From positions 88,570 through 152,569 of the forward strand of contig CAZMJL010000003.1 in NCBI GenBank assembly GCA_964566635.1: DNA of 64,000 bases, read 5' to 3'. This DNA is from an uncultured Fimbriimonas sp. GTDB lineage: Bacteria > Armatimonadota > Fimbriimonadia > Fimbriimonadales > Fimbriimonadaceae. Positions 12,241 through 14,599 of this stretch are shown piece after piece (the stretch's first letter is position 1; every line of letters begins with the position of its first letter). Under the pieces are notes generated by a model that worked only from the letters and a program-made list of their open reading frames with translations, made no database searches and was not told the origin of the DNA. The position numbers and the translations under genes were made by a program.

Positions 12241-12999
12241 TTAAAGCGGCTTCGCCGATTTGAGCACGCTCTTCATCGCTGACTGGAGCAACTTCTCATC
12301 CACGGGACGGTTGCCGTCCCGGTCCAAAATCCGCACCACTGGCTCGATCCGCTGGAATCCGCCCGTCGCCGAATCAAGGGTCGCCGCAAGGTCGAGCATT
12401 TCGAGGCCATTGACCAAAACGTCCTCCAGAGATCGCTTTGTGAACGTACCCTCCTTCCGGCGCAGATACTCAAAAACTCCTCGGATCGGACCAGAACCTG
12501 AGCCTGCGCAAGCATATTCGTCGTTCAAAAACCTCGCGCCGGCGCCGTCAAAGAAGTACAGCACGAACTTATCCGCCGCCTTATCGTAGGCAGCCAAGAT
12601 TGGAAGAAACACTCCGATCCCCTCCATCGCCGAGGCCGCATTGCCCGCCAACGAGCGGCTCACTTCGGCCAGCTTGCCCTCCAAAGAAAGCTCCTGCATA
12701 ACCGAGCGGCGGTAGTACTTGAACGAGTGCTTCAGATACCGGCAAATCTCGACCGAGCGGGCAAATGAGCCGCTAATCGCGACGACCGTCGAGTCATCAA
12801 GCGGCATCACCTTCTCGGCCTGCTCAAACATGATCATGTTGCCCATCGTGGCTCGGCGATCGGCAAAAATCAGAACTCCATCATTAAATCGCAATGCGAG
12901 AACGGTCGTTCCGTGCGCCTCGTCAGGATGCGCACCCGCCTTGATAAACGGCTCGGGCACGAGCTCATGAAACGGCTTTGCAAGTGCAGAAAGGCTCAT
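12241..12999 (-). CDS. prcB: 20S proteasome beta subunit (actinobacterial type)
   Basis: Propeptide ending AHG|TT (catalytic Thr1), ADRRATMG (Asp17), EKV (Lys33), GSG and DSATGG motifs. Confidence 0.9.
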   Translation of the reverse strand: MSLSALAKPFHELVPEPFIKAGAHPDEAHGTTVLALRFNDGVLIFADRRATMGNMIMFEQAEKVMPLDDSTVVAISGSFARSVEICRYLKHSFKYYRRSVMQELSLEGKLAEVSRSLAGNAASAMEGIGVFLPILAAYDKAADKFVLYFFDGAGARFLNDEYACAGSGSGPIRGVFEYLRRKEGTFTKRSLEDVLVNGLEMLDLAATLDSATGGFQRIEPVVRILDRDGNRPVDEKLLQSAMKSVLKSAKPL

Positions 13000-13178
13000 T
13001 GGCCCGACCTCTGGCGATACTTCTTCGCCTGATCCGGATCGACGCGCTTGAGGCGGCGCAGAAGCTCGTCGCCGCCATCGGGCTTTTGCACATCCGGCGC
13101 CTTGGGGCCGCTGTCATCGCCCAGCTTTCGCTCGGGCGAAGTCGGAATCTGGCGTTGAGGTTGCTCGGCGTTGATCAT
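12996..13178 (-). CDS. ubact: Ubiquitin-like protein UBact (Pup analogue)
   Basis: 60 aa, disordered N-terminus, C-terminal ELLRRLKRVDPDQAKKYRQRSGQ matching the UBact R[ST]G[EQ] terminus; located between dop and prcB. Confidence 0.9.
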   Translation of the reverse strand: MINAEQPQRQIPTSPERKLGDDSGPKAPDVQKPDGGDELLRRLKRVDPDQAKKYRQRSGQ

Positions 13179-14599
13179 TGCATCTCCTTGAGGGCGGTCA
13201 CAAACGATTCTACGTCAGCGCACTCCGCCAGCGTCGCGGGATATTCCTTTTCCGGCGGCAGATCGATGAATTCGTTGTTGATTGTAATTCCGCGCCACCC
13301 GATAGTTTGCAGCTGGTCGCGGAACTTGGTGACCGCCACCGATCTCGCCAGTGCCCTAGAGTGCGGAACACCTTTTAGCCGCGCATCGGTAATCGGCGGG
13401 TGTACTTCGGCGGCTTGCTCAAGCGCGTAGTACAGCCCTTCATATGGGTCGATATTGTGAAACTCCAAGTCGTAGGAGCGCATGTCGCCGTCCTCGCCAA
13501 ACTCCGCCTTCACTTGGTCAAGGAGCTGACTCTTTGAAAGCCACTCAATGCGCTTAACTACCGCAGGTAGAGGCGATGAAATACCTTGAATCAACTCCAT
13601 CGAGCTCTTGGCCACCCATTCCATCTCTGGATCGACCTGACCGAGCAGAGCAGTTTCGGCCGCCCGAGCATAGCTACCAAGGATCTCCTCTGCTCTGTTG
13701 ATGACCTCCTTGTCATTCGGAGAGCGGCTAAAGTGCTTGAACTGATCCACCGGATCGTCAATTTTCCACTGGGGTACTTTTCCGGCTTCGAGCAAGTACA
13801 AGGCGAGCTTGACAAGTCCTACTTTCAGGGCGCAAGACACCTCCATCATGTTCGAGTCGCCCGTAATCACGTGCAACCGAATCCACTTCTCTGGGTCGGC
13901 ATGCGGCTCATCGCGGGTGTTGAAGATTGGGCGGCGCCACAAGGTCTCCAAGTTCATCAGCTCACTCAGGTGGTCGGCGCGTTGGCTGACTTGAAAATCA
14001 CACGGCTCGCCACTTTCAGAGCCGACTTTACCGGCTCCAGTCAGGAGTTGGCGAGCGATTAGTATGGGAACGATTGCGTCCCGAATCGCTTCTGGCGAGT
14101 GCCGCCGCGAGACCAGATAGCTCTCATGCGTGCCGAAAGACGCCCCATGGAAATCAGTGTTATTCCGGTACAGACCGACCCTGCGACCGGTCTTAGCCGC
14201 GTAAGCCGCCGCCGTGGCCAGTAGGTAGCCATCGCCCAGCGACACTTCCCGAGCGAGCTGAAAAATCGAAAAACACTCCGGAGTGGCGTACTCCGGATGC
14301 CCGTGGTCGTTATAGAACCGGGCTCCATTCGGCAAGACTCGATCCGCCCGGATATCCCGAGCGTCGCCATAAGTCTTTCCTTTGTCGAACCGAGCATCGT
14401 TCGGATCAAACTGAAGGCGGTCTACCGAGAACCCGCGTAAGTCGTTTCGGGGATTTTCAAAGCGATAATCCCAACCTTCAAAACAAAGACTCGGAAAACC
14501 TCTCACGAAGTCTTCCGAGTCTTCTACTTGGGTTTCGGGTCCTCGCCCTTCAATTCTGAGTCCGTACTCAGTATCGATTCCGGCGAGGATCCGATGCAT
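13175..14599 (-). CDS. dop: Dop-type deamidase/depupylase (PafA/Dop family)
   Basis: GIDTEYG, Dop-loop WDY..[22 protein letters not shown] (D-H-x-H is Dop-like, not PafA-like DVGSH), [27 protein letters not shown]. Confidence 0.85.
   Translation of the reverse strand: [474 protein letters not shown]

Follow-up and report, generated by a model that had tools for sequence, protein, structure and literature searches.

A UBact cassette of Fimbriimonas: overlapping genes for a Dop-type enzyme, the tag UBact and a proteasome beta subunit

Introduction

How much of a bacterial tagging and degradation system can be read from a locus that holds a tag, a tag-processing enzyme and a protease subunit, but no ligase, alpha subunit or unfoldase? 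The question is raised by a stretch of 64,000 nucleotides from a contig of an uncultured Fimbriimonas sp. (Armatimonadota, class Fimbriimonadia), referred to below as the window, in which three overlapping genes encode a Dop-type enzyme, the ubiquitin-like protein UBact and a proteasome beta subunit. In Gram-negative bacteria UBact is presumed to be what Pup, the actinobacterial tag, is in its own phylum, and the locus adds one more ortholog. The name was given in 2017 (Lehmann et al.) for several Gram-negative phyla, in which, according to a passage of PMC12751074, homologs of the conjugation system and of the proteasome accompany the tag. Sporadic Dop/PafA homologs have been noted in Armatimonadetes (Hecht et al. 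2020, PMC7947786), and the proteasome subunits of armatimonadetes were placed within a Gram-negative subcluster of the bacterial subunits (Fuchs et al. 2017, PMC5666114). The analysis presented here is the correct identification of a known, biochemically uncharacterised system in one more genome. It is likely that the three genes form the core cassette of a Fimbriimonadia-type UBact system, which would work by homology with actinobacterial Pup.

Results

Identity of the three proteins

Profile searches for Pup_ligase, UBact and Proteasome matched all three families far beyond chance. The 474-aa enzyme matched PF03136 (Pup_ligase) with an E-value of 2.5e-107 over 434 of 441 profile positions. 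Its score was 281.7 bits with the Dop model TIGR03688 (residues 5-442) and 215.9 bits with the PafA model TIGR03686 (residues 89-409), which places Dop 66 bits ahead. The closest solved structures were those of Dop (4b0r/5lrt, E 1e-58, and 9cku), followed by PafA 4b0t (5e-44). The segment W43-D-Y..P..D.R-G-F57 aligns with the Dop loop of Acidothermus Dop, WDFEEENPLRDARGF (4b0r), a loop that is missing from the PafA-type sequences of both sets considered here (the Armatimonadota paralogs described below and canonical PafA). The sequence N-D98-H-G-H-P-E-Y aligns with the active-site strand of Dop and lacks the two residues that are inserted there in the Fimbriimonadia PafA-type paralog, and a further segment of 19 letters aligns with a 20-letter segment of the solved Dop. 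The relationship was also assessed by a neighbor-joining (NJ) tree of 57 sequences (442 columns, 50 bootstraps), which took in both Armatimonadota paralog sets and used as references Acidothermus Dop and the Dop and PafA sequences that are defined by synteny in canonical UBact loci. All 50 bootstraps separated Dop from PafA and placed the window enzyme with Dop; it lies among the synteny-defined Dops. Membership of PafA, or of neither clade, was ruled out by the model scores, the ranking of the solved structures and the tree; the 474-aa enzyme belongs to the Dop clade. Its nearest homologs (94-70% identical) are found in metagenome-assembled genomes (MAGs) labelled Fimbriimonas or Armatimonadota.

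The 60-aa protein is UBact. It matched PF20513 with an E-value of 6.2e-21 (74.3 bits; cutoff 27.8) and NF033388 with 7.8e-22 (77.3 bits; cutoff 35), and is 97% identical to an equally long protein, P0121. A chance open reading frame (ORF) was ruled out by these two curated models and by the near-identical annotated orthologs. All 120 nearest UBact protein clusters end in RQRSG[QE], with Q in 99 and E in 21; among 84 species loci the ratio of Q to E was 61:23. The two termini thus coexist while Dop is retained, as is the case with Pup. In an alignment of 32 diverse sequences 17 UBact columns were invariant, among them P15, D21, P25, P28 and P33 of the middle region.

The 252-aa protein matched PF00227 (Proteasome) with an E-value of 8e-26, and its best solved matches were PrcB of M. 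tuberculosis and of Rhodococcus. In the alignment with mature M. tuberculosis PrcB (2fhg_H, 6ocw_H; residues 31-248 versus 1-220), residue 31 of the precursor falls on residue 1, and Gly-1, Thr1, Asp17 and Lys33 (G30, T31, D47 and K63 of the precursor), as well as GSGS and DSATGG, are all kept. Judged from this alignment, the predicted catalytic set of the beta subunit is intact. Thr1, Asp17 and Lys33 were present in 77 of 77 parsed betas from Fimbriimonadia; these betas form one clade, with a mean identity of 38% to canonical Gram-negative betas and of 31% to M. tuberculosis PrcB. At two related loci (L018:10156-10893 and L031:10156-10893) the beta has Ala, not Gly, before the catalytic Thr (THATTVLAL), and no Dop gene was found within 10 kb upstream of UBact at either.

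Gene order and overlaps

The features of the cassette are listed in Table 1. At the first junction the sequence gagatgcaATGAtc (also written gagatgcaATGAtcaac) merges the Dop stop codon TGA with the UBact ATG, and at the second ggccaATGAgc (longer form ggccaATGAgcctt) merges the UBact stop TGA with the ATG of beta. Both internal starts are preceded by purine-rich stretches that resemble Shine-Dalgarno sequences, AAGGAG for UBact and GAGG for beta. With this arrangement Dop, UBact and beta would be translated as a coupled unit.

Table 1. Positions of the cassette features and of the adjoining lipoprotein gene in the window, and of PafA-clade paralogs at related loci.
Feature	Position	Strand	Basis
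Dop-type deamidase/de-conjugase (predicted), 474 aa, Pup_ligase family	13175..14599	minus	PF03136, TIGR03688, 4b0r, tree
Dop-loop motif, residues W43 to F57	14429..14473	minus	alignment with Acidothermus Dop
Active-site strand D98-H-G-H-P-E-Y104	14288..14308	minus	alignment with solved Dop
UBact, 60 aa, C-terminus RQRSGQ, Gln60 codon 12999-13001	12996..13178	minus	PF20513 and NF033388
Proteasome beta subunit precursor, 252 aa; 30-aa propeptide, Thr31 (= Thr1) codon 12907-12909	12241..12999	minus	PF00227, PrcB alignment
ATGA overlap, Dop stop/UBact start	13175..13178	minus	read in sequence
ATGA overlap, UBact stop/beta start	12996..12999	minus	read in sequence
Predicted lipoprotein, 486 aa	14600..16060	minus	signal peptide and lipobox VFGC, then Thr-rich linker
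PafA-clade paralog	L053:2836-4305		
PafA-clade paralog	L085:10001-11467		
PafA-clade paralog	L086:10001-11467		
PafA-clade paralog	L087:10001-11452		

The initial annotation of this DNA had described three genes joined by two ATGA overlaps, and had read them as a Dop-type enzyme with a Dop loop and a D-H-x-H motif, a 60-aa UBact ending in RQRSGQ in the position of pup, and a beta subunit with Thr1/Asp17/Lys33 behind a 30-aa propeptide. The three ORFs, on the minus strand, and both overlaps are present as described. The two motifs align with 4b0r in an enzyme of the Dop clade (50 of 50 bootstraps), the small protein passes the cutoffs of both curated families, and the alignment with PrcB bears out the beta subunit with its propeptide. 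UBact lies between the Dop-type and beta genes in the window, in its relatives and in the canonical loci.

Conservation in Fimbriimonadia

One genome per species was scanned with a UBact alignment, which yielded 328 UBact loci; the best 80 of these are all from Fimbriimonadia. Conservation was counted over 84 species loci, and the searches for alpha subunits and Mpa-like ATPases reported below covered 88 related loci (1.48 Mb). Beta adjoins UBact in 80 of the 84 species loci and Dop does so in 74 (77 have enough upstream sequence). UBact and beta are joined by a 4-nt [AG]TGA overlap in 67 of 82 related loci, and by a stop/start overlap of any kind in 72; a 4-nt overlap between Dop and UBact was found in 46 of the 64 loci with a placeable start. 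Gene calls around L001-L004 gave the order unknown protein, Pup_ligase, UBact, Proteasome with 4-nt overlaps each time, and in these four relatives a divergent yceD-plsX-fabH block usually lies beside the cassette. The betas of the approximately 80 cassette-bearing species are 48-99% identical among themselves. F. ginsengisoli Gsoil 348 (CP007139.1) and about 80 Fimbriimonadia MAGs share with the window the order lipoprotein-Dop-UBact-beta, the 4-nt overlaps and the yceD-plsX-fabH neighbours; F. ginsengisoli differs in that its Dop is only ~50% identical to the window Dop and its UBact ends in Glu, versus Gln in the window.

The conserved gene order, the overlaps, the catalytic residues and the invariant UBact positions argue that the cassette is a conserved unit under selection, neither a chance arrangement nor a relic. 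A proteasome locus that was acquired horizontally and is now decaying without a present function would explain why half of the canonical gene set is missing. We consider such a remnant very improbable, given that the reading frames are intact, the catalytic residues are kept in 77 of 77 betas, UBact has invariant residues and the overlaps persist in about 80 species.

Three Fimbriimonadales loci (L053, L080 and L043) have UBact and Dop, with a PafA-type gene in addition in L053, and no beta within 10 kb; they resemble the proteasome-free pupylation of corynebacteria. Such loci would fit a mainly regulatory role of UBact tagging, as in those corynebacteria, with the neighbouring beta being unrelated or accessory. 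This explanation seems improbable in view of the frequency with which UBact adjoins beta (80 of 84) and overlaps it (72 of 82), and adjacency together with overlap argues for co-production and a shared function.

Some of the records call for comment. In L047 (CAWHLK010000023.1) Dop and beta are each broken into two ORFs, the cause being frameshifts or assembly errors, and the record is titled 'uncultured archaeon' despite its Fimbriimonadia-type cassette. The MAG records of L061 and L075 are titled Methyloversatilis discipulorum and Synechococcus sp., while the cassette, again of the Fimbriimonadia type, lies on contigs of 1.4 Mb and 0.97 Mb; these records are probably mislabelled or mis-binned.

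Proposed pathway and components missing from the locus

By homology with Pup, the Dop ortholog would convert the C-terminal Gln60 of UBact to Glu by hydrolysis of its side-chain amide. The gamma-carboxylate would then be activated with ATP, and UBact joined to lysines of target proteins, by a PafA-type ligase whose gene would lie at another place in the genome; the same Dop could later cut the isopeptide bond and free the tag. The beta precursor would cleave itself between Gly30 and Thr31 on assembly, giving an N-terminal-threonine protease. Each of these enzymatic steps, as well as the delivery of tagged proteins to the protease, is modelled on the actinobacterial pathway.

Several observations weigh against a pathway of this kind. 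First, the scores lie under the NCBIfam equivalog cutoffs: the Dop score of the 474-aa enzyme is well under the cutoff of 492.3 bits, its PafA score is likewise under that of the PafA model, and beta reaches 124.9 bits with TIGR03690 (cutoff 191.9). Second, components are missing. In the window, phmmer (--max) found neither a second Pup_ligase ORF, which would be a ligase, nor a second proteasome-family ORF, which would be an alpha subunit, and there is no Mpa-like ATPase; across the 88 related loci no alpha and no Mpa/ARC ATPase was found within 10 kb of UBact. Canonical loci, by comparison, hold all genes side by side in the order Mpa-like ATPase (~580 aa)-Dop-UBact-beta-alpha-PafA. Third, a PafA-type gene was seen only in relatives, none of them tied to the genome of the window, and this paralog has NPKWExFY where Dop and canonical PafA share NTRDEPxAD. 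Finally, no experimental study of UBact was found in the literature searched; as far as that literature shows, the statement in the initial annotation that the chemistry and substrates of UBact are not experimentally established stands. Fuchs 2021, the Müller & Weber-Ban review and the paper on the F. ginsengisoli genome are silent on the matter. The functional UBact-ylation and degradation pathway that it went on to propose is not readable from the locus, which holds Dop, the tag and beta but no ligase, alpha subunit or unfoldase.

The missing components were sought in several ways. Pfam scans of 40 further ORFs of the window gave housekeeping genes, with ClpX as the sole AAA+ unfoldase. In the 88 related loci a jackhmmer search started from beta recovered a single beta at each locus and no other protein. 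Searches of these loci for alpha and Mpa, including a regular expression for the Walker-A motif, matched only the betas, Lon, ComM and one unrelated AAA protein, with Lon and ComM as the sole Walker-A matches. The alpha probes were archaeal and mycobacterial, and the mycobacterial probe detected the alphas in canonical loci. Hidden Markov models (HMMs) of 65 Gram-negative alphas and 14 Mpa-like ATPases likewise found nothing, in the 88 loci or in the window; for alpha, the lowest E-value was 1.2.

For the canonical comparison, 120 metagenome loci with a UBact ending in RQRTG were retrieved by a degenerate DNA pattern. In 72 of them the sequence extends 1 kb or more beyond beta, and in 64 of these 72 alpha lies directly 3' of beta. 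Eight loci of the canonical type (L092, L108, L117, L118, L171, L182, L189 and L195) are without adjacent alpha or PafA, and their betas are on average 69% identical to those of the six-gene loci. The contigs of these eight have ~63% GC and carry several genes with prepilin-type N-termini; in L171, L189 and L195, where upstream sequence is present, a UBact-beta pair was found with no Dop nearby.

The PafA-type paralog came to light in L053 (Fimbriimonadales), where a second Pup_ligase gene, without the Dop loop, lies 1.4 kb upstream of Dop. Its match to the PafA model spans that model entirely (277.3 bits), and a search with it returned a large Armatimonadota family that groups with the synteny-defined PafAs in the NJ tree. 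Two insertions set the family apart, a two-residue GS in the active-site strand (DAVGSHxEY) and ~30 residues after GRVG; these and the NPKWExFY replacement, three changes in all, are conserved in the 120 clusters sampled. Because NTRDEPxAD is replaced, ligase activity of the paralog is not assured. By its sequence a candidate ligase exists in the lineage, but it is atypical. In F. ginsengisoli the PafA-type gene (P0304) is solitary, 2.18 Mb from the Dop locus, and another, P0310, is likewise solitary, 617 kb from L004 on the same 1.28-Mb contig. In the hot-spring MAG L087, the PafA-type gene is convergent with Dop-UBact-beta and adjoins it, giving a compact four-gene cluster with no alpha or ATPase nearby.

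These data bear on two explanations for the missing alpha subunit and unfoldase. The system may be complete but dispersed, with alpha and an Mpa/ARC unfoldase at unlinked loci and an ordinary alpha7-beta7-beta7-alpha7 particle degrading UBact-tagged proteins; we would put the chances of this at a little less than even. In F. ginsengisoli and one further genome PafA already lies apart from the cassette, and operon fragmentation is therefore real in the lineage. The eight canonical-type betas also lack an adjacent alpha, so that missing linkage is no proof of absence. The invariant middle region of UBact (P15, D21, P25, P28, P33) suggests a further binding partner, and armatimonadetes are represented in the Gram-negative alpha/beta subcluster (Fuchs et al. 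2017, PMC5666114). Against dispersal stand the HMM searches, with zero alpha or Mpa-like genes in the 1.48 Mb of the 88 loci and in the window, the canonical loci, 64 of 72 of which have alpha immediately 3' of beta, and the L087 cluster, which is compact, includes PafA, and is still without both.

Alternatively, the Fimbriimonadia beta could assemble and be processed alone, like HslV or BPH, or work with a different partner, in a system made up only of Dop, UBact, beta and the PafA-type enzyme. The failure to find alpha or Mpa in the window or the 88 related loci agrees with such a variant, as does the divergence of the Fimbriimonadia betas, a single clade 38% and 31% identical to the canonical Gram-negative and M. 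tuberculosis proteins, and the PafA-type paralog is remodelled too. We nevertheless think this variant rather unlikely: the absence was tested by local searches (the window, and 10 kb around UBact), and the beta still has what is typical of subunits that depend on alpha, a propeptide together with the full catalytic set. In Rhodococcus, the actinobacterial beta reportedly neither assembles nor self-processes without alpha, which also counts against it. Extended to whole genomes, the proposal would be that Fimbriimonadia have neither alpha nor Mpa, and that the PrcB-derived beta acts as an alpha-less protease, co-translated with UBact and served only by Dop and the remodelled PafA-type enzyme. 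Such a minimal system would be unlike both the canonical 20S particle and HslV, and in our judgement its existence is doubtful.

Relation to known systems

With the canonical UBact loci of Gram-negative bacteria the window shares the tag family, including a near-identical C-terminal half (ELL.R..KVDPDQAK.YRQR[ST]G[QE]), and the placement of UBact between Dop and beta; the Dop/PafA orthologs group together in the tree. It differs in having no alpha after beta, no Mpa-like ATPase before Dop and no PafA after alpha. The C-terminus reads RSG here versus RTG in canonical UBact, and the identity to the canonical proteins is 38% for beta and 36% for Dop. The features in common with the actinobacterial Pup system are a Dop-type enzyme with the Dop loop and the DHxHPEY strand, a small and probably disordered tag that ends in Gln/Glu and is encoded between dop and prcB, and a beta with a propeptide and Thr1/Asp17/Lys33. 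Here, however, the tag is of the UBact family and ends in RSGQ versus GGQ, and prcA, mpa and pafA are unlinked. The sequences are also distant, with 33% identity between the Dop-type enzyme and Acidothermus Dop and 31% between beta and PrcB of M. tuberculosis. The sole likeness to HslV, BPH and Anbu is a catalytic subunit without an accompanying alpha gene. Unlike HslV, the window beta is PrcB-type by sequence (the HslV models gave 25-30 bits), has a propeptide and is coupled to a tagging system.

The occurrence of such a tagging system outside Actinobacteria is not new: the name UBact dates from 2017, Pfam and NCBIfam have curated models of it, and NCBI names the orthologs 'ubiquitin-like protein UBact [Fimbriimonas sp.]'. 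The Armatimonadetes were reportedly among the UBact phyla already in the 2017 work of Lehmann and colleagues. What the comparison brings out is a class of Armatimonadota whose system is reduced at the locus level to Dop-UBact-beta, with a divergent PafA elsewhere, while other phyla keep a six-gene block. No earlier description was found of such a reduction to three genes across a whole class versus six elsewhere, for which the evidence is local. If the alpha ring and unfoldase were absent genome-wide, a proteasome beta could work without them, and a very small set of proteins would be available for ubiquitin-like tagging and proteolysis in vitro. Since F. ginsengisoli is cultured, the question of alpha and unfoldase is testable.

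Neighbouring genes

The lipoprotein gene upstream of Dop is co-oriented with the cassette, and its TAA stop abuts the Dop ATG (TAAATG). The sole promoter-like site of the region (16118-16089) lies upstream of it, and the gene probably shares a transcript with Dop, UBact and beta. A homolog is found upstream of Dop in 55 of the 84 species loci; the 486-aa protein had no Pfam or NCBIfam match. It is unlikely to be a functional partner of the UBact machinery because the export signal and lipobox predict an exported protein, whereas that machinery is cytoplasmic.

Positions 10628-12172 of the minus strand encode a decarboxylase of the UbiD family that belongs to the futalosine menaquinone pathway (TIGR03701, 620.9 bits). 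The gene begins 68 nt 3' of beta on the same strand, with no terminator-like site between the two, and is not conserved as a neighbour in the relatives. In the window, too, a divergently transcribed yceD-plsX-fabH block lies beside the cassette. The span 57365-59373 on the minus strand holds ClpX (442 aa, zinc finger and AAA_2) and, beside it, an ORF of 217 aa for a probable ClpP. Also on the minus strand, at 50569-54938, a 970-aa PSCyt2/PSD1 (DUF1549/DUF1553) gene is followed by one for DUF1501, a pair best known from Planctomycetes.

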